Source: a virus
IMG/VR virus record: IMGVR_UViG_3300033150_001094
Location: 1 to 61,191 of that record
Length of the DNA stretch: 61,191 nucleotides
Reading direction: 5' to 3' (one strand)
The notes under the pieces: generated by a model
Database searches by the model: none
What the model saw: the letters and a program-made list of their open reading frames with translations, nothing else
Told to the model about the DNA's origin: nothing
Translations under genes and position numbers: made by a program
Part shown: positions 8,297 through 56,382 of the stretch, one piece after another
Layout of the letters: each line of letters starts with the position of its first letter
Position numbering within the stretch: the stretch's first letter is position 1

Positions 8297-8313
8297 GTAA
8301 GATTGGTGCGGGA
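8297..8313 (-). promoter_or_regulatory. conserved promoter-like motif, copy A
   Basis: The minus strand reads TCCCGCACCAATCTTAC, 51 nt upstream of the cassette A ATG. Confidence 0.55.
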
Positions 8314-8347
8314 TTTTTCCCGTTGGTGGGGGCGTCCACCAACACAT

Positions 8348-8377
8348 AAAAAACCCCACCCGAACATATGTCCGGGT
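8348..8377 (-). terminator. intrinsic terminator of cassette B
   Basis: Minus strand has ACCCGGAC-AUAU-GUUCGGGU followed by a U6 run. Confidence 0.7.
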
Positions 8378-8406
8378 AGGGCTGGCAGGAGGATATGAAG
8401 AAAACA

Positions 8407-8667
8407 TTACAACAACCCAGCCAAAACAAGTGCCGACACCACAGAGTGCGTCATGCAGTTTTCGCACCAGCCAGCGCGCTGGTCCGGTTCGTAATAGTAA
8501 ACCGTCCGGCACAGCCTACAGATTGCCGGAACAACAGTGTCATCCTCATACAGATACAGTTCACACAGCTCGTCAAGGGATTCATACCCCTCGGTTTCCA
8601 GCAGTTCTTCCAGTAAACTCCTCCTTATTTCCTGTTTTGCTCTTTGAAGTTCTTTTTTGGTAACCAT
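8407..8667 (-). CDS. cassette B protein (86 aa, zinc-ribbon-like)
   Basis: MVTKKELQRAKQEI... with CRLC...CENC. SD is AAAGGAGAAAGCC-ATG. The longer ORF-track version (to 8928) would run through the promoter and terminator repeats. Confidence 0.6.
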   Translation of the reverse strand: MVTKKELQRAKQEIRRSLLEELLETEGYESLDELCELYLYEDDTVVPAICRLCRTVYYYEPDQRAGWCENCMTHSVVSALVLAGLL

Positions 8668-8719
8668 GGCTTTCTCCTTTGTCTTGAATCTTGCCCCTCC
8701 TGCCACTATTGCTGAGCGA

Positions 8720-8736
8720 GCAAGATTGGTGCGGGA
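8720..8736 (-). promoter_or_regulatory. conserved promoter-like motif, copy B
   Basis: TCCCGCACCAATCTTGC, 53 nt upstream of the ATG at 8667. Confidence 0.55.
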
Positions 8737-8866
8737 TTCTTGCCGTCGACAGGGGGCTTGCCGCCGCTTGCCTGCCTCCACCGCGTGTACGGCACTCGTC
8801 ACAATTCGAGCAACTGTTTCCCCATAAAGGGTTCGCCAACTGGCCGCCTGGTCTATCCGGGCGCGC

Positions 8867-8904
8867 AAAAAAACGCCCCGCCCAAGCAACCGCCTGGGCA
8901 GGGC
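8867..8904 (-). terminator. intrinsic terminator of cassette C
   Basis: A 10-bp stem (GCCCUGCCCA / UGGGCGGGGC) is followed by GUUUUUUUGCGCGC. Confidence 0.7.
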
Positions 8905-8924
8905 TGGCAGGGGGAAAGCTGTTG

Positions 8925-9155
8925 TCATTTGTCAAACTCTACAAATCCAGTATCTGTTGGCCAATAGGTGCCTGAACAGCACTCTTTGATTCGCCTGTAT
9001 TCCACCCGCCATTTTAGGTGTCTGTCGCCATAATCGGGTGCAAGCGTTAGAACTACTTTTGCCAAATCTCTTTTGGTCGGCTTTTTTTGCCACTCCCAAG
9101 CTCGGTCATCTAGGACCAAGCCAGTCTGTGCATCAGTAATGACCAAGTAATACAT
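8925..9155 (-). CDS. cassette C protein (76 aa, hypothetical)
   Basis: MYYLVITDAQTG... with SD AAAGGAGGGAAAA-ATG. Confidence 0.6.
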   Translation of the reverse strand: MYYLVITDAQTGLVLDDRAWEWQKKPTKRDLAKVVLTLAPDYGDRHLKWRVEYRRIKECCSGTYWPTDTGFVEFDK

Positions 9156-9204
9156 TTTTCCCTCCTTTGTCTTTTCTTTGCCCCCTGCCACCATTTCTGA
9201 GCAA

Positions 9205-9221
9205 GCAAGATTGGTGCGGGA
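9205..9221 (-). promoter_or_regulatory. conserved promoter-like motif, copy C
   Basis: TCCCGCACCAATCTTGC, 50 nt upstream of the ATG at 9155. Confidence 0.55.
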
Positions 9222-9350
9222 TGCTTGCCGTTGGTCGAGCAGCATCACCCAACACAGCATCGCTTGCCGCGCCTGCCGCCTCAAACCAACTGACGACTGA
9301 CCTTTCCACATCTAGGTTCCACAACTGGCCTGCCGCACGGATGCGCGCAC

Positions 9351-9386
9351 AAAAAAACCCTGGCCGGATTGTAGTGCCGACCAGGG
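9351..9386 (-). terminator. intrinsic terminator of cassette D
   Basis: A CCCUGG...CCAGGG hairpin is followed by UUUUUUUGUGCGCGC. Confidence 0.7.
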
Positions 9387-9406
9387 CGCGCGTGCGGCAA
9401 AGACAG

Positions 9407-9721
9407 CTAGTCCGCCTGCGACTCGGAGGTGAGGATCGAATGCAGGTTGGCGAAGATCGGCGTGGCGTGCCTGCCCACGCTGCAGGGAATCAGATCGCCA
9501 CCAACCTCCAGGTAGCTGCGCCCCCTCACCCTCACAAGCGTACCACCCAGCACGCTTGCGGCGAAACCCAGAGCCTCGGTGTAGATGCGCTCGGACAGGT
9601 GCTCTGGTTTCGCGCTGATGGTGATTGAGTCGGAATCAATGTTGACTATAAGACTTTCGCCAACATAGACTCCCAACCGACCAGGACGCCACTTCAGATG
9701 CGTGTTCTTTGGGATATACAT
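9407..9721 (-). CDS. cassette D protein (104 aa), possibly AbrB/SpoVT-like fold
   Basis: MYIPKNTHLKW...SLIVNIDSDSITISAKPE...VRVRGRSYLEVGGDLIP. It is a paralogue of cassette E. SD is GGAGGTCAAGGTC-ATG. Confidence 0.6.
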   Translation of the reverse strand: MYIPKNTHLKWRPGRLGVYVGESLIVNIDSDSITISAKPEHLSERIYTEALGFAASVLGGTLVRVRGRSYLEVGGDLIPCSVGRHATPIFANLHSILTSESQAD

Positions 9722-9807
9722 GACCTTGACCTCCAACACGAGTGTGTCGGCCACCCACAGCCCCCTATGGGCTGTTGAACAGCAGCCGAGACAACATGTT
9801 GACGCAG

Positions 9808-9824
9808 GCAAGATCAGTGCGGGA
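9808..9824 (-). promoter_or_regulatory. conserved promoter-like motif, copy D
   Basis: TCCCGCACTGATCTTGC, 87 nt upstream of the ATG at 9721. Confidence 0.5.
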
Positions 9825-9828
9825 AACA

Positions 9829-10272
9829 TCACGCTGCCACCAAACCGAGCAGCCACGCACCCGCCGACGGCAGCGGGCACCGCACATCGGCGGTGCACAA
9901 CTGGCCTGCCAGACCACATGCCTGGCCAGCCCATCGGCGCAAAAAAACATCCGAGCGTGCCGAAGCACGCCCGGATTTGTGCCCTGCGGCCAGATCACGC
10001 GTCGGCCAGCTGCACTCGTGGTCACCCGGCGTCGCGGGGATGAGCTGCCCGTCCAGCTCCATGTAGCTCCGCCCCCGGACACGAACCACTTGGCCACCCA
10101 ACACCACGGCCGCCAAATTCAACGTCTCGTTGTAAATCCGGTCCGAGACCTCAGGCGGTTTGGGCACGATCACAAGCCCATCCCGTGTCGCGGTCACAAT
10201 CGGCTGCCCAGATGCACGCACTTGCATTGCGGCAGCACCCCACTGAACACTCGAGCCCTTGGGAATGTACAT
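9829..10272 (-). CDS. cassette E protein (paralogue of D); the ORF has no stop before its own terminator
   Basis: MYIPKGSSVQW...VRVRGRSYMELDGQLIP aligns with cassette D for about 80 aa. The frame then stays open through the terminator hairpin to 9829. Confidence 0.5.
   Translation of the reverse strand: MYIPKGSSVQWGAAAMQVRASGQPIVTATRDGLVIVPKPPEVSDRIYNETLNLAAVVLGGQVVRVRGRSYMELDGQLIPATPGDHECSWPTRDLAAGHKSGRASARSDVFLRRWAGQACGLAGQLCTADVRCPLPSAGAWLLGLVAA
9941..9976 (-). terminator. intrinsic terminator of cassette E (lies inside the open frame)
   Basis: AUCCGGGCGUGC-UUCG-GCACGCUCGGAU is followed by GUUUUUUUGCGCC. Confidence 0.65.
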
Positions 10273-10345
10273 GACCGAATCCCCTACATGCGTTGCAACC
10301 CACCGCGGGCTGCCGACCAGCAGCCAACTCACTATGCCCACGCAA

Positions 10346-10362
10346 ACAGGATTGGTGCGGGA
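10346..10362 (-). promoter_or_regulatory. conserved promoter-like motif, copy E
   Basis: TCCCGCACCAATCCTGT, 74 nt upstream of the ATG at 10272. Confidence 0.5.
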
Positions 10363-10630
10363 ATCCCAAACAACATGCCACCACAGACGCCCATGCCTAA
10401 AAATTGAGCACGCCCATGTTCGCCACACATCTGTGTGGCCACAACTGGCAACCACCCCACCGTTGCACCTAAACCCTTGCAGGCAAAGCACTTAGCCGCG
10501 GCCACGACCACGCCCCCTATCGGAAAGGTTGGACATTTGCGTACCCGTTGGTGGGGTGTTTTACCGGGATTTCGGATACCAATCCGCCAAAACGTGTCCA
10601 ACCCTGGGCCACTCACGGGGTGCCCTCGGA

Positions 10631-10679
10631 TTGCGTAATTTTTACGCAAAATGCCCCAAAAGGGTGGGAAAATTGCGTA
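10631..10679. promoter_or_regulatory. TTGCGTAA / TTACGCAA palindrome plus a third half-site
   Basis: TTGCGTAA-TTT-TTACGCAA occupies 10631-10649 and TTGCGTA occupies 10673-10679. The middle arm can pair with either outer arm. Confidence 0.45.
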
Positions 10680-10689
10680 TTTTTTGGGC

Positions 10690-10940
10690 AGATCCCCTGC
10701 GTCACCGCGTAGGGGGTGTGGTATTTGGGCGTTGTTAGGGCCGTTTGGGTGGTTTGGGCGTGGTTAGTTACAACGGGGTGGCGTGGTGAGTTATGGGTGA
10801 GTGGGGGTATGGGGGTATCGAGAGATACTGGGCGCGGGGCGTAGTTGGTGTGATTTGAGGGGTAGGGGCGTAGCGTATCTCGAATCGGGGCGTTTTCTGG
10901 GGCGTGGCAGGTGGGGGAAGCGTGAATGTGGCGCAAAAGA
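10690..10940 (-). repeat. G-depleted (on the minus strand) tract with reiterated ACGCCC / CACACC units
   Basis: The plus strand has only 5-6 C per 60 nt (hand count of lines 10741 and 10801). The minus strand repeats CACGCCCC, ACGCCCCG, CTACGCCCC, ACCACGCC and AACGCCCAAA. Confidence 0.6.
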
Positions 10941-10995
10941 TAGGGGGTAGCCGACATGAAGCCGACCACCCCCACGGGCACGAGGGGAGAACGTG

Positions 10996-11244
10996 TTATC
11001 TGAGGTCACCTGGGTCCACAGCTACTATGAGGGCGTCGCCGTGTGCCCATGCTTTGCGTATCTCATATCCAGGTGCCCTGCGTGTGGTTTGGCACTTCGG
11101 GCCTAGATACTGGTCGCGGACGATCAGGCGTGACTCGGGCAGGGGCGGGCCGTGACCAGAGGGCACCGCGACGTATCCGATCCCCCCGTTCCACCACGCC
11201 AGTGGCCCACGTTCAATCCAGTATATGTCAAAAGTTCTTTTCAT
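10996..11244 (-). CDS. hypothetical protein (82 aa)
   Basis: MKRTFDIYWIERGPLAWWNGGIGYVAVPSGHG... The start overlaps the upstream stop (ATGA). Confidence 0.5.
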   Translation of the reverse strand: MKRTFDIYWIERGPLAWWNGGIGYVAVPSGHGPPLPESRLIVRDQYLGPKCQTTRRAPGYEIRKAWAHGDALIVAVDPGDLR

Positions 11245-11368
11245 GCGTCACCCTCCGTGCTGGTGGAGATGTCGCTGGGTTCGTGCCCGTTCGGGGTTCG
11301 CCCGTTTCTGCCGGGCACCGGAGCGTGCCGTCTTCAAGAATGACAATCTCAAACGTGTCGTTGGCCAT
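11228..11368 (-). CDS. hypothetical small protein (46 aa)
   Basis: MANDTFEIVILEDGTLRCP... is the internal Met of ORF 11228..11743. Tentative. Confidence 0.3.
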   Translation of the reverse strand: MANDTFEIVILEDGTLRCPAETGEPRTGTNPATSPPARRVTHEKNF

Positions 11369-11372
11369 TGCG

Positions 11373-11678
11373 TTACCTCCTTGTGACGAGGAGCTTTCTA
11401 CCTTGGCGGCGAACCCTCCACCCGCGGGCACGGGCAGTTCGCTCAACCAAGCGTTCCGAATACCGTTGCTGAACCTGGCGGACGCGTTCGACGCAGTCCC
11501 GCTCAACTTCCGCGTTGTCACCGCGAATGGTGGCGATGACACGCCCACCGTCGATAAACTGAATGACACCCGCGACCACGCGGGTGTCCAGCCCCACATC
11601 CTTGGCGGCCGCCACGATTTCTCTGGCGTTTTTCTGCCGCCACTCAACCCGCACTGTGTTGATTTCCCAACACGGCAT
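11373..11678 (-). CDS. hypothetical protein (101 aa)
   Basis: MPCWEINTVRVEWRQKNAREIVAAAKDVGLD... The Arg-rich C-terminal tail may be out of frame. Confidence 0.45.
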   Translation of the reverse strand: MPCWEINTVRVEWRQKNAREIVAAAKDVGLDTRVVAGVIQFIDGGRVIATIRGDNAEVERDCVERVRQVQQRYSERLVERTARARGWRVRRQGRKLLVTRR

Positions 11679-11681
11679 GCT

Positions 11682-11924
11682 TCACCCCTTTCTCTTTTGC
11701 AGTGCCACGATTCTCGCCACGTACTCCAGCCAGAGCAGAGCACGTTTCACCCTGCGGCGCGGGATGGCCGCACCGTCCAACCACGAAGACAACAACAACC
11801 GCGCTTGAAACGTGCGCGGCCCCCGATCCGCGCAGCCGTGGGTGTAATCAAGAACTCGCGCAGCGCGCTCTTTGAGTTTCATGCGGGGGCAGCCGATGCA
11901 GCGCCACTCCACGGCCATTGCCAT
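11682..11924 (-). CDS. hypothetical protein (80 aa)
   Basis: Has a CIGC...HGC cluster and a basic helical C-terminus. Confidence 0.4.
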   Translation of the reverse strand: MAMAVEWRCIGCPRMKLKERAARVLDYTHGCADRGPRTFQARLLLSSWLDGAAIPRRRVKRALLWLEYVARIVALQKRKG

Positions 11925-11995
11925 TCTCCTTGTTTGGCCGAGCCCCCGCGCGACTCGGCACCCCGTGATTCCCGGCGCGGGCGGGATACTAACCG

Positions 11996-12832: not shown

Positions 12833-12840
12833 ACGTCCTC

Positions 12841-14175: not shown

Positions 14176-14250
14176 CCCCTATAAATAAAGCTGTCTGGCC
14201 GAAGTGGGGGGTGGCACTAGGCCAGACTATCCCCTACCCCTCAGCAGCAA

Positions 14251-14267
14251 GCAACTATGGTGTGGGA
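14251..14267 (-). promoter_or_regulatory. promoter-like motif facing the AAA+ operon
   Basis: The minus strand reads TCCCACACCATAGTTGC, 76 nt upstream of the ATG at 14175. It abuts the plus-oriented copy back to back. Confidence 0.45.
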
Positions 14268-14286
14268 TTCCACGCACAATCTCGCG
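14268..14286 (+). promoter_or_regulatory. promoter-like motif, plus-oriented
   Basis: TTCCACGCACAATCTCGCG. Confidence 0.4.
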
Positions 14287-14371
14287 TGGGGCGCCGGGCG
14301 GACCGAAGCACCCGATAGCTGCCGGCGGCCATCCACTCAACTGGCCGTAGAACACAACTGGCCCACACTAT

Positions 14372-14391
14372 TCCACCACACCAACCTTGCC
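14372..14391 (+). promoter_or_regulatory. promoter-like motif, plus-oriented, upstream of the beta-solenoid operon
   Basis: TCCACCACACCAACCTTGCC, 42-58 nt upstream of the candidate starts. Confidence 0.45.
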
Positions 14392-14448
14392 TCCTGCTGA
14401 TTGTTGCTGGCCCTAGAAGAAAGGAGTGAAACATGCTGGCCTATTGTT

Positions 14449-15321
14449 ATGTGCCGAGTGACGCCTAATCTTCCCGCTAAGGCTGAGCTGGTAGTTACCG
14501 CTGAGCCTGTCTGCGGCAAGAGCGTTATGCAAGACTTCATTGAGCGCATGTTGGCCCGTCCGGGCCACAACGTTGTGGCCGCTGGAAGCGTCGCTCGCCC
14601 GATTCTGGCCAACAGCACGGGCCAAGTGGCTTTCTCGTCTGAGATTTGTCCAGCTGTCGCGTACGGTGAAGATACTGTGGCAATCGCCACATATGACACA
14701 GCCGTGGCTCACGGTATCGGTGCGGTTGCTGTCTGCACAGCCGACAGGGAGGCGGCCATCGCCGTTGGCGTGCAATCCCGTGCCCACTACCACGGCAATG
14801 ACGGTTGCGCTATTGCCGACGGCACATTGTCTGTCGCAAGTGCGTGCGGCGAAGGCTGCTACGTTGGCACCACTGTGGGGATAGCCGTCTTGCACGGCTC
14901 ATGCGGTGTCGTCACTGGCAATGAGACAGTCGTTGTGGGCAATGACAACGTTGTGAATGTCGGCCGCAAAGGATTCATCAGAGGCGAAAGAAACAGTATT
15001 GCATTGATACCGGAATCTTCCGTGGAGGGAGTTGTTGCTGTTTACGGCTCACGCAACACAGTGATTTGTATGCGGCAAATCCGATTGCTTGTCGGGCCTA
15101 AAAGCACCGTATACTTGCAGAATCCTAGCATTGTGAAGGCCGGCAAGGAAAGCCTGGTCTATTTCACGCCCACGGATGGCATCTATTCGACGTTTCACGT
15201 CGGCGAAGACATTCCTGCTGACACATGGCTGGCGTTCAGCGTGGAGGATAATGTCGTGGAGGTCACGGAGACCGACCAGTTGGCAGAAATCCCATCAACA
15301 AGCAGCCAGGAGGAGTCGTGA
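14449..15321 (+). CDS. beta-solenoid repeat protein
   Basis: Reiterated short A/G/V repeats (AVAHGIGAVAVCTADREAAIAVGV..., GNETVVVGNDNVVNVG). The C-terminus is HVGEDIPADTWLAFSVEDNVVEVTE. The start is uncertain (TTG 14401 or ATG 14449/14527), and the strong SD at 14421 serves an out-of-frame ATG at 14433. Confidence 0.6.
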   Translation: MCRVTPNLPAKAELVVTAEPVCGKSVMQDFIERMLARPGHNVVAAGSVARPILANSTGQVAFSSEICPAVAYGEDTVAIATYDTAVAHGIGAVAVCTADREAAIAVGVQSRAHYHGNDGCAIADGTLSVASACGEGCYVGTTVGIAVLHGSCGVVTGNETVVVGNDNVVNVGRKGFIRGERNSIALIPESSVEGVVAVYGSRNTVICMRQIRLLVGPKSTVYLQNPSIVKAGKESLVYFTPTDGIYSTFHVGEDIPADTWLAFSVEDNVVEVTETDQLAEIPSTSSQEES

Positions 15322-15800
15322 TGAAACCACGCAAGGTTTACAAAGTGGTGTATTGCTTCGACGGCAAACGATGGTCGGCGGCCGTGCGGGCGCCGGGATG
15401 GATGCTTGAATATCACGTCAACAGACCAACAGTGCCGACAGTTCAGCAGTCCTGTCTGTACGCGTTCAAAGACTATCATTCGGCGCTGCTGTTTATGAGG
15501 GACTACGGCAGCTGTCGGCACGAACTGTGGGAGTGTGACGGGATTGTGGTGCCCGTGCCTCGCGTTGTGGTGGTTTCGCCGTACGCAGAAACCATGATGT
15601 GGCTGTGGCAGCGATACACGAAAACATGTGAACTGGGTGGCGGCTGCCGGCCGCCGCACGGCACGATCATGTGTAGCAGCATCACGCTGCGGCAACGGCG
15701 AGCAATCTATGGATTCAAGGATGGCAGGATAGACGTTTTTCGAGTCCAGCCCAACGGAACGCCATACGGCCAATCTCCCGAGGGCGTTAAGCCATGCTAA
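15321..15800 (+). CDS. VYKVV-family paralogue 1
   Basis: MKPRKVYKVV...LYAFKDYHSALLFM...ELWECDG...CRPPHGTIMCSSITL. SD is CAGGAGGAG, and the ATG overlaps the upstream TGA. Confidence 0.7.
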   Translation: MKPRKVYKVVYCFDGKRWSAAVRAPGWMLEYHVNRPTVPTVQQSCLYAFKDYHSALLFMRDYGSCRHELWECDGIVVPVPRVVVVSPYAETMMWLWQRYTKTCELGGGCRPPHGTIMCSSITLRQRRAIYGFKDGRIDVFRVQPNGTPYGQSPEGVKPC

Positions 15801-15838
15801 CGGAGCAGTCACGATGAAATCCCGCAAGGTTTACAAGG

Positions 15839-16294
15839 TTGGACGGGAAGCGTTGGTCGCTCTTCGCACGATCACCGAAGTGGATTGTTAAGTATCACGT
15901 CAACCGACCAACAGTACCGACAATTCAGTGGTCCTACCTCTACGCATTCAAGGACTACCATTCGGCACTGATGTTTATGCAAGAGTGCGGAACTTGCGAC
16001 TACGAATTATGGGAGTGCGACGGCGTAATAGCACCCGTGCCTCGCGTTCTCGTGATTACGCCGCATCCAGATGCTATGACCTGGTTGTGGCGACAATACA
16101 CGCATGTGTGTGAGTCGGGTGGCGGCTGCCGTCCGCCTCACGGCACAATCGTGTGTAGCAGCATCACGCTAAGGCGACGGCGGGCAGTCTATGGCCTGAA
16201 AGACAACATGCCGAACATTTTCCGTGTCCACCCTGACGGCACACCTTACGGACGGGTGCCGGAAGGCGTCGCGGTTGGTGAAATACCGTTCTAA
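15839..16294 (+). CDS. VYKVV-family paralogue 2, N-terminus detached by an 11-nt deletion
   Basis: The ATG at 15814 encodes MKSRKVYKV and then stops at 15891 in the wrong frame. The rest (DGKRWS...LYAFKDYHSALMFM...PHGTIVCSSITL) is in the +1 frame and only has a TTG start. Confidence 0.5.
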   Translation: MDGKRWSLFARSPKWIVKYHVNRPTVPTIQWSYLYAFKDYHSALMFMQECGTCDYELWECDGVIAPVPRVLVITPHPDAMTWLWRQYTHVCESGGGCRPPHGTIVCSSITLRRRRAVYGLKDNMPNIFRVHPDGTPYGRVPEGVAVGEIPF

Positions 16295-16320
16295 TACTCT
16301 AGCACGAGAAGGACACACAG

Positions 16321-16779
16321 GTGCGCACTATCGAAGTCTACAAAGTCGTAAGGAGGTCAGGCGACAAATTGCAGTCTGCCCTCATTTACGATCAAAGGTT
16401 CATTGTGGACTATGTGCCCGGCAAACCCACCAAACCGAAACATCCGGGGTCGCTCCTGTACGCTTTCAAAGACCTAAAATCTGCCGTGCGGTTCATGGGA
16501 AGTAACTGCTTGCCCGGCCACGAAGTCTGGGTGTGCCAAGCGATACCATCAAGGCGCAAGCCAAAAGCGGCGAACTGCACGGCTTTGTTCACGCGATTCT
16601 GGAATCTCTTCACGAGGCGCAAAGACATTCCTCGCCTCGTTCTTGGGCTCGTACCACCTGGGTGTATCCTTTGTTCCGAGATCACGCTCGTGAGGCGTGT
16701 CGCCAGATTTCAGTGCTTTGATGGCACAGACGACGAACCTATAGTCTTCGTCGACGAACACGGAAGGAACCCGAAATGA
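16321..16779 (+). CDS. VYKVV-family paralogue 3
   Basis: MRTIEVYKVV...LLYAFKDLKSAVRFM...EVWVCQA...PPGCILCSEITL, with a GTG start. Confidence 0.65.
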   Translation: MRTIEVYKVVRRSGDKLQSALIYDQRFIVDYVPGKPTKPKHPGSLLYAFKDLKSAVRFMGSNCLPGHEVWVCQAIPSRRKPKAANCTALFTRFWNLFTRRKDIPRLVLGLVPPGCILCSEITLVRRVARFQCFDGTDDEPIVFVDEHGRNPK

Positions 16780-17015
16780 GCGCACTTTCAATCAAAAACA
16801 TTGTCGAGCACGCAATGGCGCTCAAGCCAAAAGGCGTCAGTGCCTCTGATGTGCGGCGAGCAGCAGAAAGGGCTATCACCCAGCATCGCCGTCTTTATCT
16901 TGAAACCAGTTATGCCGGCGGTCCCGGACGATGTTACATTCCGTCTACGCCGGGCGAAGAAGCAGAATGCGAAAAACTTGTCCGCACCAGCACACGGTGG
17001 TATCGCTTGCTCTAG
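16776..17015 (+). CDS. hypothetical protein (79 aa)
   Basis: ATGA overlap with paralogue 3. Not related to the family. Confidence 0.5.
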   Translation: MSALSIKNIVEHAMALKPKGVSASDVRRAAERAITQHRRLYLETSYAGGPGRCYIPSTPGEEAECEKLVRTSTRWYRLL

Positions 17016-17032
17016 TGACGAGGGGGATTGCT

Positions 17033-17426
17033 ATGCAAAAGACTGTTTACAAAGTCGTTAGGCGCGCAGACGGTGGGCGACGTTTTTCGGTCGCTACGCA
17101 CGAACCAGAATGGAGGGTTGAATACTCGCCCCATTTTCCGGCTCGGCAAGGACGCCGTCTCGTTCGCCCTGTTCATGGGAGGCGTTGGGCTTGAGATATG
17201 GTTGGCGGAAGCCGACGTGGTAGAGCAGAAAGCGCGTGCCGGGTTTTTTCAGGGGTGGGATTACCTTTATCGCGTGTTCTGGGAGCACTATGACGAAAAG
17301 ATAGGCGAGCCCGCACCGCGAGGCACGGTGCTGTGCTCTACCATCACGATAAAAGAGCGCCTAGCAGAAACCGTGGAATCTTCCGATGGTCTGATCACTC
17401 TCCAGGAAATGGAGCCATCCCGTTAA
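17033..17426 (+). pseudogene. VYKVV-family paralogue 4, frame-broken (+1 needed near 17135-17140)
   Basis: MQKTVYKVVRRADGG...WRVEYSPHF is in one frame (stop at 17194). RLGKDAVSFALFMGG...EIWLAEAD...PRGTVLCSTITI is in the +1 frame. The junction is at CATTTTCCGG. Confidence 0.6.
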
Positions 17427-17443
17427 CCGCAAAGGTGAAGCCA

Positions 17444-17872
17444 ATGGCCACTGTTTACAAGGTAGTTTCACGAGATGAGAACGGGCAGTTGTGGTCTGCT
17501 GCCACGGTTGATGAGCGGTGGAAGGTGCGTTACCCAGTGGGGGCGCTCATCGTAGCTCGCCAACCCGATTCGATGCTTTACGCATTCCGTGACTACGACT
17601 CGGCCGCCCGCTTCATGCGGGCATGGTGTGGCAGAACCCACGAAATGTGGGAAGCGGAAGCCGACATTGACCAGTCTGTAGAGATGCCGTGGTGTGCCAC
17701 GGTAGGGTTCATGTTTGATCTGTTCTGGCAGAACATGTCCAAAGTCCCGAGTCGCTACGTCGCTCACGCGCCAGATGGGACGGTCCTCTGCAAAAGCATC
17801 ACCCTACGCAAGAAAGTTGGTGTGCTCGGTCTTGGGACGGTAATCCGCGTCAATGAGCAAGAGGAAAAATGA
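17444..17872 (+). CDS. VYKVV-family paralogue 5
   Basis: MATVYKVVSRDENG...MLYAFRDYDSAARFM...EMWEAEAD...PDGTVLCKSITL. Confidence 0.7.
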   Translation: MATVYKVVSRDENGQLWSAATVDERWKVRYPVGALIVARQPDSMLYAFRDYDSAARFMRAWCGRTHEMWEAEADIDQSVEMPWCATVGFMFDLFWQNMSKVPSRYVAHAPDGTVLCKSITLRKKVGVLGLGTVIRVNEQEEK

Positions 17873-18267
17873 GTACGCTGCATCCCGTTTTCAAGATTGT
17901 CAAAAAGCTCCCAGACGGGCGTCTTGTGTCGCCATGCGTAGGCGATCCAGAATGGCGAGTAGTTTACGTGCGAGACACGTTTGTGACCCCCCAAAAACCG
18001 AATAGCCATCTTTACGCGTTCGGGCGGTTTACGCTTGCAAGCGTGTACTTGCTTGGGCCACTACAGGCGCCTGACCTGGAATTGTGGGCTGGCGTGTCCG
18101 ACGCAGTTGGTATTCCGAGCAAGGAGGCTTGGCCGTGCGACCCACGTTTCTTTGAGACATTTTGGTACGGTGATCGTCGCCGCGTGGTGACTGTTGAACC
18201 GTGGCCCGGCACGCTCGTTTGCAAGAGGATAAAATTGCAATTCAAGATTCCCTTGGAGAGAAAGTAA
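17869..18267 (+). CDS. VYKVV-family paralogue 6 (divergent)
   Basis: MSTLHPVFKIVKKLPDG...HLYAFGRFTLASVYL...ELWAGVSD...PGTLVCKRIKL, with an ATGA overlap. Confidence 0.6.
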   Translation: MSTLHPVFKIVKKLPDGRLVSPCVGDPEWRVVYVRDTFVTPQKPNSHLYAFGRFTLASVYLLGPLQAPDLELWAGVSDAVGIPSKEAWPCDPRFFETFWYGDRRRVVTVEPWPGTLVCKRIKLQFKIPLERK

Positions 18268-18602: not shown

Positions 18603-18633
18603 ACGAGCCGAGGCAGCCAGCGTTTGTGCCAGT

Positions 18634-18822: not shown

Positions 18823-18838
18823 CGTGCATCCTCCCAAA

Positions 18839-23970: not shown

Positions 23971-23973
23971 AGT

Positions 23974-24303: not shown

Positions 24304-24319
24304 ACTACACCTCCTTTCT

Positions 24320-46394: not shown

Positions 46395-46681
46395 TCTAGC
46401 GTTCGTAACCTCCCGCGTCCCGTGACCACATCACCAATTTTCAGCCTGCTCATCAGGGCAACTAGCTCGCCAGTGGCATATACATATAGCACTTCTGGCT
46501 GAGTGGGGCCGACTTGCAACACTACATGCCCCGCTGGCACCTTCTGCCGAAACGGCCTCGCAAACTCCGGCGGTGCCACCACTACGCCAGTAAACTCCAC
46601 GGTGACACCAAGCCCCTTGACCTCTTGTATATCATCAGGCCGAAAGACGGCCCTAGACAAGCCCAAAGTCATCACCTGCAA
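46286..46681 (-). CDS. hypothetical protein, possibly OB-fold
   Basis: ...GDVVTGRGRLRTLEWQTNNKPRNEKRLVVHAEKLE is an SSB-like strand pattern. Weak evidence. Confidence 0.35.
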   Translation of the reverse strand: MQVMTLGLSRAVFRPDDIQEVKGLGVTVEFTGVVVAPPEFARPFRQKVPAGHVVLQVGPTQPEVLYVYATGELVALMSRLKIGDVVTGRGRLRTLEWQTNNKPRNEKRLVVHAEKLESNQRVNSLPHWLRK

Positions 46682-48221
46682 TCCTCACGTACATACCCGT
46701 TGCGTCATCGTCGGGCAAAGCCTCTGCTACTGCGCACACACGGTCACCACTGCTGGCCACTTTGGACACTCCACCCACTGACGTATCAGTCCCGTCGCCG
46801 AACGTCAACTCATTGTCAGACGACAAGAAATTGTACGCAGCAAACTTCGTCCATGCCGCTGAGCGTTGCACCTTGCTCAGCCGGAACTCACCCACTTCAC
46901 CCATTGCAGTGTTCGACTCGCCTGAGTCACCGATGTATAGCTGGTCCAATGAGTCTTGAGCGCCCGTCGTGGTGCCTGAAACGTCTTTTGCTACACCGTC
47001 CAATTCCAGCCTACTGTTGTTAATGTCCGAATCATTGCCACCTGGAATCGAAACGACCAGATAGTGATAATCGGTGTCCTCAATCTCGTTCAGCACGTCT
47101 ACGTTCCATGACCGCTGCGAGAGCCCCAAGATCAAATCCACTGTCTCAACGCCATACGAGAGGTACGCCGTCCCACCAGTATTCAAGCTGAATGCAATCG
47201 GGCCGCTGTCGCCGACGCCCGGCGTGGCAAACAACCACTCGACAGTCCATGCCGTCACGTTGGTAAGAGGATCGCACGCGATGCAGCCATCAAATGCCCC
47301 TAATGCGTTAAAGAATTGCCCTTTGCCCACCAATGAATCGATCTCTTGACTCTGCTTCCCAGACTTGGCGCCATCCATCCCCACTGTAGCCGCTACCTTC
47401 GAGCTGTCGCCAGGCTTATCGGCCATATGGGACACCCACAGATAGTCAGAGTCCCACACGCTGGCCGCATTTTCCAGTCCTTGCAACGCGGGTGGTCCAT
47501 ACTTCATCAAAAGTAGAGTGCCACTCGTGGATATGCTCGGTACTTGAACGAAAAAGGCACCGCTGGCGGCGCCATCACTGATACTGAATGAGACTTTTTC
47601 GTGAGGCAGCGGTGTATCAGTATCCGTGATGGCATAAAAGCAAATGTCTGAGCCATCCGGCAGGGCGTATGCACCAATCTCCGTGTCGTTCGTAAACGCC
47701 ACCAAAAGGGGGAACTTGGTAAGGGTGCTATCAACGTTATCACCCTTGACTGTAATCACCCGATTTCGCCGCCGGTAAGCGCCTGCAAGCCGCAACTTCG
47801 ATCCGGCCGTTACGCTGGGCGCCCTGGGTAGTCGAATCAGCCCCCGTTCAACCACAAAGGCAATGTCGTTCTGTCTCCATGGGTGTGGTTCTCGGCCGGG
47901 AATTAACAACCTGGGCCGCTGAGCGTACCTGTCCGCGATGCCCACAACATTCTTGCCGCTGCTGTCAAGCTCTACCCACGTTGCCTGATGGTAGGGAATG
48001 TCAAACCCCGCGGCATTTCGGACGGCACGAAGCACCATATTGCGCTGTGGATAGAAACTGTCAGCGGGCGCTCGCCACTCAAACAGTTTCCCCGCAAATC
48101 CCGACCCAAAATCCGAAGATACCAATCTCTCTTTTCTTGCATACGTCGTGTGCGGATGAAAGGGTAAGACTGCCTCTTGCCACATGATCGCACTCCACAA
48201 AAAAGGGGGAACCTGCCACAA
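46653..48221 (-). CDS. DUF2341-like plus LamG/concanavalin-like domain protein
   Basis: DICFYAITDTDTPLPHEKVSFSISDGAASGAFFVQVPSISTSGTLLLMKYG, then a lectin-fold-like C-terminal half (YHYLVVSIPGG...SRLELDGV). Confidence 0.5.
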   Translation of the reverse strand: MWQVPPFLWSAIMWQEAVLPFHPHTTYARKERLVSSDFGSGFAGKLFEWRAPADSFYPQRNMVLRAVRNAAGFDIPYHQATWVELDSSGKNVVGIADRYAQRPRLLIPGREPHPWRQNDIAFVVERGLIRLPRAPSVTAGSKLRLAGAYRRRNRVITVKGDNVDSTLTKFPLLVAFTNDTEIGAYALPDGSDICFYAITDTDTPLPHEKVSFSISDGAASGAFFVQVPSISTSGTLLLMKYGPPALQGLENAASVWDSDYLWVSHMADKPGDSSKVAATVGMDGAKSGKQSQEIDSLVGKGQFFNALGAFDGCIACDPLTNVTAWTVEWLFATPGVGDSGPIAFSLNTGGTAYLSYGVETVDLILGLSQRSWNVDVLNEIEDTDYHYLVVSIPGGNDSDINNSRLELDGVAKDVSGTTTGAQDSLDQLYIGDSGESNTAMGEVGEFRLSKVQRSAAWTKFAAYNFLSSDNELTFGDGTDTSVGGVSKVASSGDRVCAVAEALPDDDATGMYVRIAGDDFGLV

Positions 48222-48288
48222 CCATTGTAGCAGATTCCCCCTCCGGCCATAATACCTCCACGTCCACGCACGAGGAGAAGGAGGGCTC

Positions 48289-48873: not shown

Positions 48874-48885
48874 AGCGTACCTCCG

Positions 48886-49971
48886 TTAGCTGAAGTTGGT
48901 TACGGTGTCGATGATTCCGACGCAAGCCGGAGAGTAATAGACCATCTGGCCGTCGAAATCAAGCCGAATGAGCTGCGTGCTCGTGGTGATGTCGTCGTCT
49001 TCACTCCTGTAAAAGAGCTGCGGTGACAGACACATCAGCTCAATGTGCTGAGCATTCAGCATGAACGCCAGACCGTTCGGACAGGCGTAGTCGGCCACCA
49101 GGTCCAACCCCTCAAACGCCAAAGCTCGAATCCCGAGGTCGAGAAGTTGTGGCGTCTTGCTGACCTCAAGTCGCTGCGCATCCTTGAGGGAATCCATCGC
49201 CTGACGAAGCAGTTCTGCGTTCATCACGCAGATATTGGGGTCGATCCCGGTACGCATACCAAGATACGTCCGCGTGAACCGGAGAACCGACTGCCAGTCA
49301 CCCGCCCAGGTGCCATTGGCAAAGAAGTTGCTGTCGGTCCCGTCAACGATTAGAGATGTCCAAGCAGCATACTCGGAGTCGCCATACCCAATCGGAAAGT
49401 GGCCGGTCCAGCTGCCACCCAACGCCCCCAACTGCATCGCAATTCCGGCGTATGACTTGTTGCTGCTCGGGTTCTTGGCTGGCGTGTCGCCGGCACTGCC
49501 GATTGCCGTTGCACTGGTGTCGTGCACGGTCTGGAGCCCGTCAATGTCCTCCGGATTCGAGCCGGAGTTGATGTACAACTTCATCTTGAACGCCACTTCC
49601 ATGTCTTCCAGCAACTCATTCACGGTCGTTTGCACGATCCGAATGAGCGCCTCCTTGCCTTTGTTCACCAACTTCTCAAAGCGCGAAATGCGCTCAGTCA
49701 TGTGGTAATGCCGCCAACTCGACTCCGCCTCAAGTCGGGTGTTGGTGGCCACAAAAGTGGCACTCACGGCCTCACCCAACCCTGTTTCGAGTTCGCGGCG
49801 GCGATAGCGAGGATACCACACGATCTTCCGGCCGCTGTTGTTGAACGACAGGCGGCCAAACCCACGCAAAACGCCCAACAGCGGCAACTTCGGATAGATC
49901 GTCTCGACCTTCTTGCGCACGTATTTGTTGAGCGTGGTGGTTCGGATTCTGGGCGTAATAGGATCAGGCAT
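48886..49971 (-). CDS. major capsid protein candidate
   Basis: 361 aa with strong SD (AAGGAGG). It follows the scaffold gene and has its own consensus promoter and long leader. Confidence 0.65.
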   Translation of the reverse strand: MPDPITPRIRTTTLNKYVRKKVETIYPKLPLLGVLRGFGRLSFNNSGRKIVWYPRYRRRELETGLGEAVSATFVATNTRLEAESSWRHYHMTERISRFEKLVNKGKEALIRIVQTTVNELLEDMEVAFKMKLYINSGSNPEDIDGLQTVHDTSATAIGSAGDTPAKNPSSNKSYAGIAMQLGALGGSWTGHFPIGYGDSEYAAWTSLIVDGTDSNFFANGTWAGDWQSVLRFTRTYLGMRTGIDPNICVMNAELLRQAMDSLKDAQRLEVSKTPQLLDLGIRALAFEGLDLVADYACPNGLAFMLNAQHIELMCLSPQLFYRSEDDDITTSTQLIRLDFDGQMVYYSPACVGIIDTVTNFS

Positions 49972-50281
49972 ACGAGCCTCCTTGTTCTAACGCAGGTAGA
50001 GAACTCAGCGTACCCAAGCGCGATTCCCGACAAGCAACAGCGCAAGGCTTATCGGGCAAGCGAACCGCCGAGAACGCCCGTGGGATACGGGGCCGGAAGT
50101 GCATCTGAACGAGGATTATCGCCAGGCCACGACAGCCACAGCTTCCGGGTATCCCTATCCCACCGACGCGAACCGGACCAGTGTTCGCTTAGGAAAGCAA
50201 TGCACCCGAGCGCGATTGCCGCCAAGCCGCAATCGCTATCACTTCACAGAAATTGTCTTGGTCCGGTTCGTGTAGGATTCT
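49972..50281 (-). promoter_or_regulatory. ~310-nt structured 5' leader of the capsid gene
   Basis: Perfect 12-bp long-range helix (50169-50180 with 50259-50270), 8-bp hairpin (50212-50236), and a 7+7-bp helix (50082-50099 with 50142-50155). Confidence 0.5.
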
Positions 50282-50287
50282 GTCTCT

Positions 50288-50314
50288 ATTATACCGCGCC
50301 ACCTAGCGTGTCAA
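50288..50314 (-). promoter_or_regulatory. sigma70-consensus promoter (TTGACA-N15-TATAAT)
   Basis: The minus strand reads cTTGACAcgctaggtggcgcggTATAATagag, starting 1 nt after the scaffold stop. Confidence 0.6.
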
Positions 50315-50315
50315 G

Positions 50316-51434: not shown

Positions 51435-51454
51435 GCCTGTTCTCCCTTTCTTTG

Positions 51455-51470
51455 TCCACACCAATCTTAC
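51455..51470 (+). promoter_or_regulatory. promoter-like motif upstream of the replication block
   Basis: TCCACACCAATCTTAC, 86 nt upstream of the ERF ATG. Confidence 0.5.
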
Positions 51471-51555
51471 TTGGCAACACCTGTTAGGGCGGTGCTATTT
51501 TATACTTGTTGGACCAAAGGCACAAGCCCATTCCACACTTTTAGGGGGACTTGCA

Positions 51556-53941: not shown

Positions 53942-54683
53942 TGCGCGATGCCCGGCGCACGAAGACCATCGCAACTCACTGGGCGTGAAACTGGCAAAGG
54001 ATGGTCAAAGCATCGTGCTGAAATGTTTTGCCGGGTGCAAAATCGACGACATCTGCGCGGCGTTGGGCATAGAAAAGCGTGATCTGTTCTTCAACTCCCA
54101 CACACGCGACACCAGCCGCCGCTCGCCACGCAAGCGTTACCGCATTGTGGCGTCCTACATCTACACAGATGAGCAAGGCAACAAGCTCTATAAGATCGTG
54201 CGATACAGGCCAAAGACCTTTAAAAGCTTTGCTTATGATAGCAAGTCGAAGCGCTGGCGGAAGGGCCTCGAAGGCGTCCGGCGGGTGCCCTACCGCCTGG
54301 ACATGATGGCGGCCAACAAAAGCAAAACCGTCGTGTTCACGGAAGGTGAGAAAGACGCCGACCTCGTTACCGCCAGCGGGCTATACATCGGAAGCTGCAT
54401 TGCCGGCGGGGCAAACGGTCCTCTGCCAGAAAACTTCGGGGCATACTTTCGGGGGAGGGTGGTGATCCTAGTCCCCGACTGCGACCCCCCAGGCCGGGCC
54501 TTTATGGCACGTGTCCTGTTTGAGCTAATCCCAAATGCCCTCTCGGTTTATGTTTTTGACCTTGACAGAACCAGAGCAGATGGGTATGACTTGAGCGACT
54601 GGGTGAAGGATGGGAACAGCCTTGAGGCCCTTGACTCTTGCTTGAGTTACCTCAATAGCTGCAACGTTCGCACCAATTGGTAA
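53859..54683 (+). CDS. zinc-finger / Toprim primase-like protein
   Basis: CPAHEDHRNSLGV...KCFAGC (CHC2-type finger), VVFTEGEKDADL (Toprim Glu) and LVPDCDPPG (DxD). Confidence 0.7.
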   Translation: MDSAGHVIDHIASSLKLKRLPDSSTWISARCPAHEDHRNSLGVKLAKDGQSIVLKCFAGCKIDDICAALGIEKRDLFFNSHTRDTSRRSPRKRYRIVASYIYTDEQGNKLYKIVRYRPKTFKSFAYDSKSKRWRKGLEGVRRVPYRLDMMAANKSKTVVFTEGEKDADLVTASGLYIGSCIAGGANGPLPENFGAYFRGRVVILVPDCDPPGRAFMARVLFELIPNALSVYVFDLDRTRADGYDLSDWVKDGNSLEALDSCLSYLNSCNVRTNW

Positions 54684-54689
54684 CACACC

Positions 54690-55013
54690 ATGGGACGCCC
54701 AAGAACCAGACTGACGAACTGGGAAAAGTTGATTGCCTTCACGATGCGCATCATGGCGCCTGCACGCCTGAACTCACAGGCAACCATCACCACTCTTTTC
54801 CACCCCCCAAATCGTAAGGCAGTCACCGAGGCGTTCCTTACTCTGCTGCGCACCCGCAACCTTCACCACGACGACAGGTGGCCCAACGAATATCTCAACC
54901 GCAAGACGGATGTTGTGAAGGTGTTGGCAGTTCATGCCAACATCCAAACGTTGGGCTATCGTGGCGTGACCAACAGGCATCTCACATTCTTCGGCCGCAA
55001 ACTTAGGCCATGA
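54690..55013 (+). CDS. hypothetical protein (107 aa)
   Basis: ATG start shortly after the primase stop. Confidence 0.5.
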   Translation: MGRPRTRLTNWEKLIAFTMRIMAPARLNSQATITTLFHPPNRKAVTEAFLTLLRTRNLHHDDRWPNEYLNRKTDVVKVLAVHANIQTLGYRGVTNRHLTFFGRKLRP

Positions 55014-55080
55014 TCGGTTTGTGTTTCACAATCCGTTCACTCAAACAGGAAAGGAGCACACATAGTCTGCGCGCAATCAA

Positions 55081-55113
55081 AGAGACCACCGAGGGGCTAA
55101 CCCGGTGGTCTCT
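55081..55113 (+). terminator. perfect 11-bp hairpin (no U tract)
   Basis: AGAGACCACCG-aggggctaacc-CGGTGGTCTCT, about 70 nt after the stop at 55013. Confidence 0.35.
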
Positions 55114-55750
55114 TCGTGAGTGGCGCGACGGATCGCGCTGCTCGAACGGCATGGAAGCTTTTTTCAAAGCCTCCCGCCTAAGTGCTGGCCTGCTGGACTG
55201 TGAAGGTCTAAAAAGGCCGCCGCAGGCACCAGCCGGTTTTTTCGAGGGTTTTTACCCCGGCCGTCCAGGGCAAGCCATAAAGCCCACCGAGGCGGCTAAA
55301 AAACCCCGAATAAAGCACCCTGATCGCGGGCAGGGCGGTCCAAAGGAACCGAAACAGGGTCCAACCCCTACAGGTTGGTTTCCGGGCAACGGGCTGGTAG
55401 TCGATCCAGCATTGGGGGCTACGTCCCGGTCCACCGGCATAGCCGGGGGTTCACCCCCGTTTCAAAACCCTGGTATAAGGTTCCTCGCCGACCGGGCAAC
55501 TGCGACGGCCAGCACTGACACTACTATCCTACAATCGGCCATCACAATAGACAACCCCAAATTGAGAAGAACCCCTTCCACCCAAACGAAGGGAAGACAT
55601 GTGGGGGAATGAGGAATAGGCCGGTTGGGGGGAACTCCAAGGCATCCTGGCATCCGCCACTATTACTCTATGCCAGGGGAAGCCCCCCTGTACGCCAAAC
55701 ACCCCCACACAACGGGGGTAGCGAATACCACCCCCAGGAGTCTGGGGTCA

Positions 55751-56341
55751 ATGACCTTGGTTGAGAAAATTGCCGCAGAATACAAGGGCTCCCTCCGAGA
55801 CGGTTTCGGCGTGCCATTTGCCAATGTGGTTTTCGCCCGTGCGGAGCGGGCGAGCATTGAGTTGCAGGCTCAAGGATGCCCCTGTCACAACGTGCCCCTT
55901 TGGGGGGAGCCCTTTGATTTTGCCCCTCTGGTGCCAGAGATAGACGAGTATGGCTTGATTGTGGCCCCAGAGAGGCCCATGCCTGCCATGTTGCCCCCCA
56001 GGGTGTCTGAATGGCCTACTGTCAAGCGATTGCGTTCTGGGCTAATTCTGGCCGGTCTCAAGGCCCTCTGGCGAAAGTCGGCACTGAGTGGCAAGTCTCC
56101 AGTTGAGTTGCATCATCTGTTTGCAGGAACGGTCGGGCGAGACGATGCGCCGACGGCCATCATTCCCCTGACGCCAGAAGAGCACCGCCAGGCGCACGGT
56201 GGCCAGATTGACATTGCCCTGTTGCTTGGCGCCCGATGGGCATTGCACCAGGCCAGCGTGGATTGGGTGAGATTGCACCTGTTGGCTCGCAGGCGGCTCC
56301 CGAAGCCAAGGCTGCCTTCCTGGGCGGACATCGGGGCGTAA
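55751..56341 (+). CDS. HNH-like endonuclease candidate
   Basis: MTLVEKIAAEY... ELHHLFAGTVGRDD...IIPLTPEEHRQAH resembles the HNH core. Confidence 0.45.
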   Translation: MTLVEKIAAEYKGSLRDGFGVPFANVVFARAERASIELQAQGCPCHNVPLWGEPFDFAPLVPEIDEYGLIVAPERPMPAMLPPRVSEWPTVKRLRSGLILAGLKALWRKSALSGKSPVELHHLFAGTVGRDDAPTAIIPLTPEEHRQAHGGQIDIALLLGARWALHQASVDWVRLHLLARRRLPKPRLPSWADIGA

Positions 56342-56364
56342 ACCTTGATTGCACGACAAAAGAA

Positions 56365-56382
56365 TCCCCACACCAATCTTTG
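56365..56382 (+). promoter_or_regulatory. promoter-like motif upstream of the exonuclease gene
   Basis: TCCCCACACCAATCTTTG, 42 nt upstream of the ATG at 56424. Confidence 0.5.

Follow-up and report, generated by a model that had tools for sequence, protein, structure and literature searches.

The 61,191-nt sequence of IMG/VR virus record IMGVR_UViG_3300033150_001094, analysed here over its full length and referred to as the window, has overlapping ends (22-113 = 61100-61191), and hence represents a complete, circularly closed phage genome; it corresponds to contig Ga0366836_1000746 of JGI metagenome 3300033156. Its virion genes include those for a T4-type large terminase (TerL), a P22-like portal and a major head protein (48886-49971, PHROG 9953), whilst the non-virion genes encode an ERF annealase, a helicase, a primase, a YqaJ exonuclease, RuvC and two DNA methylases; about 60% of the approximately 90 predicted proteins have no Pfam or PHROG family match. 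The nine non-virion units are each headed by a copy of a 17-base sequence, tCCCrCACCAATCTTgC, which we refer to as the box: five cassettes carrying a single ORFan each, the AAA+ operon, the solenoid/paralogue operon, the ERF/helicase/primase block and the exonuclease block.

The consensus of the nine ungapped copies is tCCCgCACCAATCTTgCtTGCt, with the information highest at CAC and AATCTT, and the scans used the core CCRCACCAATCTT, CACCAATCTT being likewise treated as core. All ten sequences listed by the first-pass annotation are present on the strands and at the coordinates it gave (Table 1), but the ten transcription units it assigned to them reduce to nine, since the sequence at 14268-14286 can be aligned only by allowing a 1-nt deletion, and belongs to the unit headed by the copy at 14372-14391. 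The latter lies between this gapped sequence and the next start codon, 144 nt away, and the gapped sequence is not among the ungapped matrix matches of at least 8 bits. Copies 6 and 8 themselves form a 25-nt inverted pair (inverted repeat I2). The start of the solenoid gene was taken from L191, a contig of the same phage from a sister sample.

Table 1. Copies of the box and associated features in the window
Feature	Position	Strand	Sequence	Box end to start codon (nt)	Context
Copy 1	8297..8313	-	TCCCGCACCAATCTTAC	50	before 72-aa ORFan 8028-8246; preceding cassette's terminator 8352-8383
Copy 2	8720..8736	-	TCCCGCACCAATCTTGC	52	before 86-aa ORFan 8407-8667; terminator 8875-8904 upstream
Copy 3	9205..9221	-	TCCCGCACCAATCTTGC	49	before 76-aa ORFan 8925-9155; hairpin and T-run 9351-9386 upstream
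Copy 4	9808..9824	-	TCCCGCACTGATCTTGC	86	before 104-aa ORFan 9407-9721; terminator 9949-9976 upstream
Copy 5	10346..10362	-	TCCCGCACCAATCCTGT	73	before paralogous ORFan 9829-10272 (101 aa, intact in L191)
Copy 6	14251..14267	-	TCCCACACCATAGTTGC	75	before AAA+ operon, start codon 14175; repeat family D1
Doubtful gapped copy	14268..14286	+	TTCCACGCACAATCTCGCG		back to back with copy 6
Copy 8	14372..14391	+	TCCACCACACCAACCTTGCC	39	before solenoid/paralogue operon, true start 14431
Copy 9	51455..51470	+	TCCACACCAATCTTAC	85	before ERF/replication block, start 51556
Copy 10	56365..56382	+	TCCCCACACCAATCTTTG	41	before YqaJ exonuclease, start 56424
Intrinsic terminator	7977..8006	-			closes the last cassette
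Similar cassette terminators	8352-8383, 8875-8904, 9351-9386, 9949-9976	-			
nATnGTG element	9189..9195	-			copy 3; semi-conserved, candidate -10 (layout M1)
nATnGTG equivalents	8281-8287, 8704-8710, 9792-9798, 10330-10336	-			
Second repeat	7895-7916, 8823-8844, ~9307-9330, ~9883-9906, 10428-10449, 14338-14363	-			
Capsid promoter	50288..50314	-	TTGACA-15-TATAAT		before the major head gene, in contrast to the box; score 16.7

The first-pass annotation had named shuffled sequence as the control on chance occurrence. Allowing up to three mismatches, the 17-mer is matched five times (0.34 expected), whilst the core CCRCACCAATCTT is matched seven times with up to one mismatch (0.10 expected) and 13 times with up to two (3.15 expected); each of these counts was reached in 0 of 100 shuffles. 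In an unbiased count, box 11-mers, with four copies each, are among the most repeated 11-mers of the genome, together with words stemming from the assembly overlap at its ends and a few that recur by chance. A position weight matrix built from the nine ungapped copies scores those same copies at 20.6-31.1 bits, a circular measure, with leave-one-out scores of 12.0-29.0 bits; the next best site, at 47939 on the plus strand, scores 18.4 bits and all others 10.3 bits or less. As the five cassette copies share ancestry, the matrix was also trained on those five alone, and among some 122,000 oriented positions the other four copies then take 6th, 8th, 12th and 15th place. Intergenic positions that are co-oriented with a gene and within 110 nt of its start codon make up only 1.45% of all oriented positions, and all four non-cassette copies fall inside this fraction; by our own arithmetic, the binomial probability of four of the 11 non-training matches in the top 16 doing so is about 1.5e-5.

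All nine copies are found within the approximately 6% of the genome that is intergenic, each aimed at the downstream gene and ending 39-86 nt before a start codon, as the first-pass annotation had described. They are present only at the starts of non-virion units, with none at 18.6-51.4 kb or within an operon, and the matrix and core scans agree with the earlier observation that no copy faces the virion block. The best non-intergenic match, TGCCCACAACATTCTTGCC at 47939-47957 (+), is antisense within a 510-aa ORFan of that block; no ribosome-binding site or convincing gene lies downstream of it, and it could be either a chance match or an antisense promoter.

The five cassettes, on the minus strand at 7.9-10.4 kb (7977-10362), follow a regular order: the intrinsic terminator of the previous cassette, a box, a ribosome-binding site, an ORFan of 72-147 aa and a terminator. 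Cassettes 1-3 have an 81-nt repeat in common (D2), and cassettes 4 and 5 encode paralogous products and have a common leader hairpin; the box is near-identical among the cassettes, whilst their flanks have diverged to about 50%. Upstream of each box in the genome there is either the terminator of the unit before it, which in cassette 1 ends only about 30 nt away, or a C-rich tract after the AAA+ operon. C-rich, G-poor tracts of this strength occur at two sites in the genome only, 7061-7860 (+) and 10700-10960 (-), with about 47-49% C and 11-12% G on the transcribed strand, and form imperfect inverted repeats flanking the cassette array. The former (~7.06-7.86 kb), with repeated CACACCC units at 7771-7863, takes in the Dam methylase gene over its 3' half, together with the end of the block of plus-strand genes; the latter marks the end of the AAA+ operon, between that operon and copy 5. 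These operon-end tracts may be Rho-utilisation-like terminator regions, in which case every box follows the end of a preceding unit. A degenerate copy proposed earlier at 7792-7815 belongs to the first tract (49% C, 12% G), and no gene follows it on the same strand.

Seven copies of a second repeat, GCCAGTTG-N10/11-(A/T)GATG, are present, all on the minus strand at 7.9-14.4 kb. The repeat lies some 70-110 nt upstream of box copies 2-6, and there is another copy beyond the last cassette; with exact spacing there are five occurrences against 1.56 expected, which is only weakly above chance. The apparently non-coding region between the AAA+ operon and cassette 5 (10545-10690, minus strand) also contains a perfect palindrome, TTGCGTAAAAATTACGCAA, and two more copies of TACGCAA, and looks like an operator.

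The major head gene, by contrast, has the TTGACA/TATAAT promoter that the first-pass annotation had recognised (50314-50288), a perfect pair of hexamers with a 15-nt spacer. Its leader of about 300 nt (49972-50315, minus strand) holds three related units of about 45 nt, resembling GCGGCAATCGCGCTCGGGTGCATTGC, and might serve in antitermination or in the control of translation. In the box-bearing intergenic regions, sigma70 scores reach only 2.8-7.2 against 16.7 for the capsid promoter, so that in most of them no sigma70-type promoter is found; the exception is 51435-51555, where TTGGCA-19-TATTTT (+) scores 10.3. Copy 9, which lies in this region 21 nt from the start of the divergent scaffold gene, is also flanked by a sigma70-like TTGTGC-17-TAAAAT on the minus strand. 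Sigma70-like sites are depleted genome-wide (4 vs 7.1 and 1 vs 6.3 expected). A further one, TTGGAG-16-CATAAT at ~60790, precedes a tRNA-like element and the gene block running from 61023 to 7760; another degenerate box had been proposed here, at 60783-60800, but has only AATCTTG in common with the genuine copies and overlaps this promoter-like sequence.

Downstream of the box, the five cassette copies have nATnGTG in common at a distance of nine nucleotides. The earlier statement that no consistent -10 hexamer follows the motif therefore holds for the set as a whole, the element being out of register in the four non-cassette copies. Within the box itself, AATCTT fits the minimal -10 pattern nATnnT in all nine copies, one position off in copy 8 and shifted by 1 nt in copy 6. 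AT content is highest at the box core and at the nATnGT element, after which comes a GC-rich stretch. Two layouts would fit. In the first (M1), the box would occupy approximately -38 to -22, with nATnGT as a weak -10 nine nucleotides downstream, an A-rich stretch at -45 to -39 in the position of a proximal UP-element subsite, and a GC-rich discriminator after the -10. In the second (M2), AATCTT within the box would itself be the -10 and TCCCrCACC an upstream extension, with no -35, a layout typical of phage middle and late promoters that depend on a phage factor. The nearest ribosome-binding site begins about 43 nt from the start of a box, so that under either layout the predicted start site, at about position 39-41 from the box start in M1 and 22-24 in M2, would fall before any ribosome-binding site.

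Proteins that might read the box were sought in the Pfam, PHROGs and NCBIfam libraries, with PHROGs applied to all but 19 small open reading frames (ORFs) of blocks B and C. There was no match to an RNA polymerase in the Pfam and PHROG scans and none to a repressor or integrase family in the library scans, and the signatures DxDGD, DxDxD and T7-type motif B were found in no phage protein; the HD[SAC] motif-C pattern is restricted to a pair of virion-block proteins (382 and 388 aa). Hence the three libraries and the catalytic-motif scans bear out the first-pass view that no phage polymerase or sigma factor is recognisable. The 1571-aa ORFan of the virion block has no sequence match in PDB, and the AAA+ protein matches PF00004 and CDC48/PAN-type families only, with no Sigma54_activat domain. 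The product of 54690-55013 was discarded as a candidate binder, as its AlphaFold model was unusable (predicted local distance difference test score, pLDDT, 45).

No close relative was found with which the box could be compared. Comparisons of DNA and of the portal protein with GenBank phages gave no match; in IMG/VR there was no exact match to the 17-mer, and only TerL relatives of at most 30% identity across most of the protein. The nearest TerL in a collection of 5.8 billion proteins is 46% identical, a TerL search over genome contigs returned nothing, and the exonuclease and one cassette protein had no homologues whatsoever. Six related contigs have only structural genes in common with the window. 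In one relative, the sequence CTCCCACAGTAAACTTAGT at L064:3016(-) lies in the equivalent divergent intergenic region; it was rejected as evidence for the box because the opposite strand is a good TTGACT-17-TAAGTT promoter of the scaffold gene and the adjoining operon is non-homologous. A scan of metagenomes for TCCCRCACCAATCTTRC was likewise uninformative: it gave at least 120 loci, all of them, among the matches listed, single exact matches, mostly in gut-bacterial coding sequence and attributable to chance. L066 and L063 are distant relatives with TerL proteins 39-43% identical. The former has an intergenic tRNA-like T-arm/acceptor (GGGAGGTTCGATTCC...) at 2810-3163 and sigma70-like promoters before its small genes; the latter encodes, at 1398-2270, a 290-aa protein with an HTH_8 (NtrC/Fis-type) domain.

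The sole other contig of this phage to cover the cassette region, L191 (from sister sample 3300033149), matches the window at every base of the six box copies checked in the shared span, and thus adds no evolutionary information. In this one contig the cassette order is the same, and the array differs only by indels of 14-34 nt, one of them at the upstream repeat. Over about 16 kb there are no mismatches in aligned blocks, whilst the window is shorter by 11-134 nt at nine sites (9334, 10010, 10292, 11320, 13097, 13538, 14175, 14466 and 15838) and has 113 extra nucleotides at 15591-15703; in the one indel checked, a short direct repeat flanks the missing segment. Through these deletions the AAA+ gene, which in L191 is intact and encodes 497 aa, is broken up and loses its ribosome-binding site, and the solenoid gene and cassette 5 are cut short. 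They may be either assembly errors or the mark of a deletion-riddled variant.

The placement of the box, its strict orientation, its modular arrangement with terminators and genes, and the lack of an alternative promoter make a promoter-specificity element the best reading of these data, in agreement with the earlier suggestion that it marks a class of phage-specific promoters or operators of the non-virion genes. With a probability of roughly 55%, we consider the box, tCCCrCACCAATCTTgC(nnGC) in its extended form, to be the specificity element of a phage-specific promoter class serving the nine non-virion units, used by host RNA polymerase together with a redirecting cofactor. The box would start all nine units, and the host multisubunit polymerase would read it only when redirected by a small factor, for which a divergent sigma factor and an appropriator of the MotA/AsiA type are candidates; virion genes would use ordinary sigma70-type promoters. 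That transcription starts at the box, and the enzyme, cofactor and timing involved, we infer from this arrangement. The host polymerase is the most likely enzyme, as no phage protein has a polymerase family match, two-barrel signature or T7-type motif B. A cofactor is suggested because the box is unlike a sigma70 -35 and because its 17 contiguous conserved bases are more than sigma factors normally read.

Several observations weigh against this reading. No sigma, anti-sigma, MotA/AsiA, Ogr-type or helix-turn-helix (HTH) protein was found with Pfam, PHROGs or NCBIfam, hence no cofactor has emerged, and the small protein put forward by the first-pass annotation (11682-11918), although it gives a confident three-helix AlphaFold model (pLDDT 85), matches no fold in PDB or BFVD and shows no DNA-binding fold. 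Comparative support is lacking: the motif scan proposed for the genome and its relatives recovers the nine copies in the window but none in the six related contigs. The -10-like element of layout M1 is solid only in the five cassettes of shared ancestry. Downstream of copy 9 there is a plausible extended -10, TGCTATTTT (51494-51501), which would place that box at about -45. Finally, no non-virion gene has a clear host-type promoter, and if all of these genes require a phage factor, the first supply of that factor needs a source: it may be delivered with the DNA, a host factor may read the box, or weak host-type promoters may make the first products, candidates for which are the extended -10 at 51494-51501 and TTGGAG-16-CATAAT at ~60790.

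A bolder version of the proposal is that a single-block 17-21-nt promoter of all early, middle and accessory genes is read by an undescribed kind of factor, either a sigma-like protein or appropriator lacking detectable homology or a polymerase of non-canonical type, which might enter along with the DNA, whilst the unmodified sigma70 enzyme of the host is left to the virion genes. We regard this as a speculative possibility, distinctly improbable yet not negligible; if true, a 61-kb phage without a recognisable polymerase would have inverted the usual temporal logic in the manner of N4. Under the promoter-specificity reading, the box provides a map of nine transcription units in a nearly unannotatable phage, and implies that a factor redirecting transcription should be encoded among the ORFans. 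To our knowledge few factors of this type have come to light (MotA/AsiA, gp12 of phage 14-1, the YuA cofactor), and every new one has shown host RNA polymerase to be captured in a different manner. Outside the T4 group, the terminator-box-gene cassettes would also exemplify modular promoter-terminator units around accessory ORFans.

The same copies might instead be asymmetric operators, at which a monomeric phage repressor silences or roadblocks weak, unrecognised promoters of the non-virion units. The box is non-palindromic and always oriented with transcription, as are stoperators (PMC9283540), and copy 9 falls within what is predicted to be the 5' leader of the divergent scaffold gene, on the downstream side of TTGTGC-17-TAAAAT, where a bound protein could block transcription of virion genes. 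However, the library scans gave neither a repressor-like HTH protein nor an integrase, the copies are confined to unit starts and, unlike stoperators, absent from operons and the virion block, and an independent promoter to be silenced is undetectable in most of the box-bearing regions; repression is rather unlikely. Still less credence can be given to a promoter read by an alternative host sigma factor, ECF-type (extracytoplasmic function) or sigma54-like, with no need of a phage factor, although this would settle which factor comes first. The sigma54 consensus is GGCAC-N5-TTGC, with a near-invariant GG (GG-N10-GC), and the five cassette copies read cGCAC-N5-TTGC in register with it, copies 2 and 3 agreeing at nine of the 12 specified positions; the GCCAGTTG-N10/11-ATG repeat about 70-110 nt upstream of five copies is in an enhancer-like position, and phage YuA has -24/-12 promoters. 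The -12 GC is present in six of the nine copies, but the hallmark GG is in none (CG in five, CA in four), and the AAA+ protein is of the classic PF00004 type rather than a sigma54 activator. An ECF factor would call for an AAC-type -35, which the box lacks, and contiguous conservation over 17 nt exceeds any host sigma element.

A similarly low likelihood attaches to an unrecognised phage RNA polymerase, possibly carried in the virion, with the host sigma70 enzyme transcribing the virion genes in an N4-like scheme. Single-subunit polymerase promoters are, like the box, one conserved block of about 17-21 nt, the virion genes do have sigma70 promoters, and the virion block contains large ORFans without a family match (18839-23554, 1571 aa; 46653-48185, 510 aa), yet the family and motif scans described above, which could miss a very divergent enzyme, found no polymerase, with HD[SAC] motif C confined to two virion-block proteins, and the sites have no common hairpin, unlike N4 early promoters. 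Single-strand folds differ among the sites, five of the nine giving z-scores of -1.1 to +0.4, no better than shuffles, and a common hairpin or cruciform round CCCGCACC was rejected, the folds being inconsistent across sites. With no fold common to the sites, structural and RNA-level roles fail, which makes it very improbable that the box acts in the 5' leader on translation or processing. Copies 4 and 5 of the box can indeed pair with the region that holds the ribosome-binding site and the start codon, and copy 2 with GGGGCAAGATT, but neither a pairing nor a hairpin is common to the nine sites, no promoter is detectable upstream of the box, and in cassette 1 only those 30 nt or so separate it from the previous terminator. 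Equally hard to credit is the notion that the repeats are relics of cassette duplication, or substrates for recombination, with no sequence-specific function. The 81-nt repeat of cassettes 1-3 and the paralogy and leader hairpin of cassettes 4 and 5 do attest to duplication, but four copies stand before unrelated operons 4-47 kb away, and the boxes of the cassettes have stayed near-identical amid their diverged flanks. DnaA boxes, IHF, Chi and LexA sites and CII sites (TTGC-N6-TTGC) were dismissed by eye.

Elsewhere in the window, two tRNA-like elements of about 144 nt (60243-60386 and 60832-60976, plus strand) have a common 5' acceptor/D-arm-like end (GCCTCGGCGGCGTGGTGGGAACACGCA) and a common 3' T-arm and acceptor (CCGGGTTCGAATCCCGGCCGGGGC) around a variable middle of about 85 nt; a partial copy at 59262-59300 has the 5' part only. 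They were found neither by ARAGORN nor by Rfam at the gathering threshold, a weak mascRNA-like match (E=0.0028) being the only one. Copies 2 and 3 of this element are preceded by GGACATAAT/GGACATAAA, and the first by GGCCAATGATTAG. In the same region, the minus-strand ORFs 60192-60593 and 60639-61109 look spurious, being rich in Pro, Arg and Ser, whilst 60455-60763 and an ORF running from 61023 across the circular junction to 166 are plausible plus-strand genes, so that the plus-strand block is unbroken from 51.5 kb to 7.76 kb. There are also two expanded ORFan families: seven paralogues of about 130-160 aa (VYKVV...LYAFKD...PPGT.xCS.ITL) at 15321-18267 and 59783-60241 (+), and four acidic proteins of about 150-175 aa at 3895-6048 (+). 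Neither family has a Pfam match or, where PHROGs were run, a named function from them, and a profile of the seven-member family found no match in PDB.

Amongst known systems, the stoperators of Cluster A mycobacteriophages (L5 gp71-type) are, like the box, asymmetric 13-17-nt sequences with many intergenic copies in a fixed orientation (PMC9283540), but they are also found in operons and virion regions, require an HTH immunity repressor and belong to temperate phages. Sigma54 (-24/-12) promoters are matched by GCAC-N5-TTGC in register in five copies and by the upstream repeat about 100 nt away, but differ in that the GG doublet is in no copy and no enhancer-binding protein domain was found. 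The cassettes themselves are most reminiscent of the promoter-early stem-loop (PeSL) elements of T4-type phages, with five tandem small ORFans and composite terminator and promoter repeats in an accessory region (PMC2839356, PMC4122927): in the window, too, a terminator and a promoter-like repeat bracket each small accessory gene, in the five cassettes at 7977-10362. PeSL promoters, however, are sigma70 early promoters, and recombination at PeSL repeats is documented, whereas the sole other contig of the present phage keeps the cassette order.

T4 middle promoters, with their MotA box and sigma appropriation, provide the mechanistic model (PMC6755090, PMC2988021). The MotA box is centred at -30 and precedes a sigma70 -10. 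In both cases a box unlike sigma70 would take the place of the -35 and the phage has no polymerase of its own, although the centre of the present box lies at about -30 under layout M1 only; it is also longer (17 nt against nine for MotA), the candidate -10 follows it by nine nucleotides rather than 11-13, and no MotA or AsiA homologue was found in the library scans of the window. Some copies of the box contain TGCTT, the MotA box core.

The nearest documented case is that of Pseudomonas phage YuA, the GenBank record of which lists five 28-nt repeats, CTTTACTTCTTCGGA-N6-CACTATAC, as 'putative sigma70 promoter requiring phage-encoded cofactor'. Nine such promoters were confirmed as start sites by ONT-cappable-seq and are inactive outside infection, and a second, non-host motif is described in the same work for phage 14-1 (PMC10914365). 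In YuA, as here, non-virion genes are preceded by a conserved block in their own orientation, which in YuA stands 21-79 nt from the start codon; the phage lacks its own RNA polymerase, and the structural genes have other promoter types. The sequences and the phages are unrelated, and the YuA block holds a -35 (CTTTAC) and a -10 (TATACT), whilst the box has no sigma70-like -35; YuA early genes also have sigma70 promoters, none of which was found for the non-virion genes of the window, with the possible exception of 51494-51501. The arrangement is nevertheless that of YuA and 14-1, a conserved non-host block lying upstream of non-virion genes and co-oriented with them, in a genome with no recognisable polymerase of its own. 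Whilst the box sequence and the phage are new, elements of this kind have been described in other phages.

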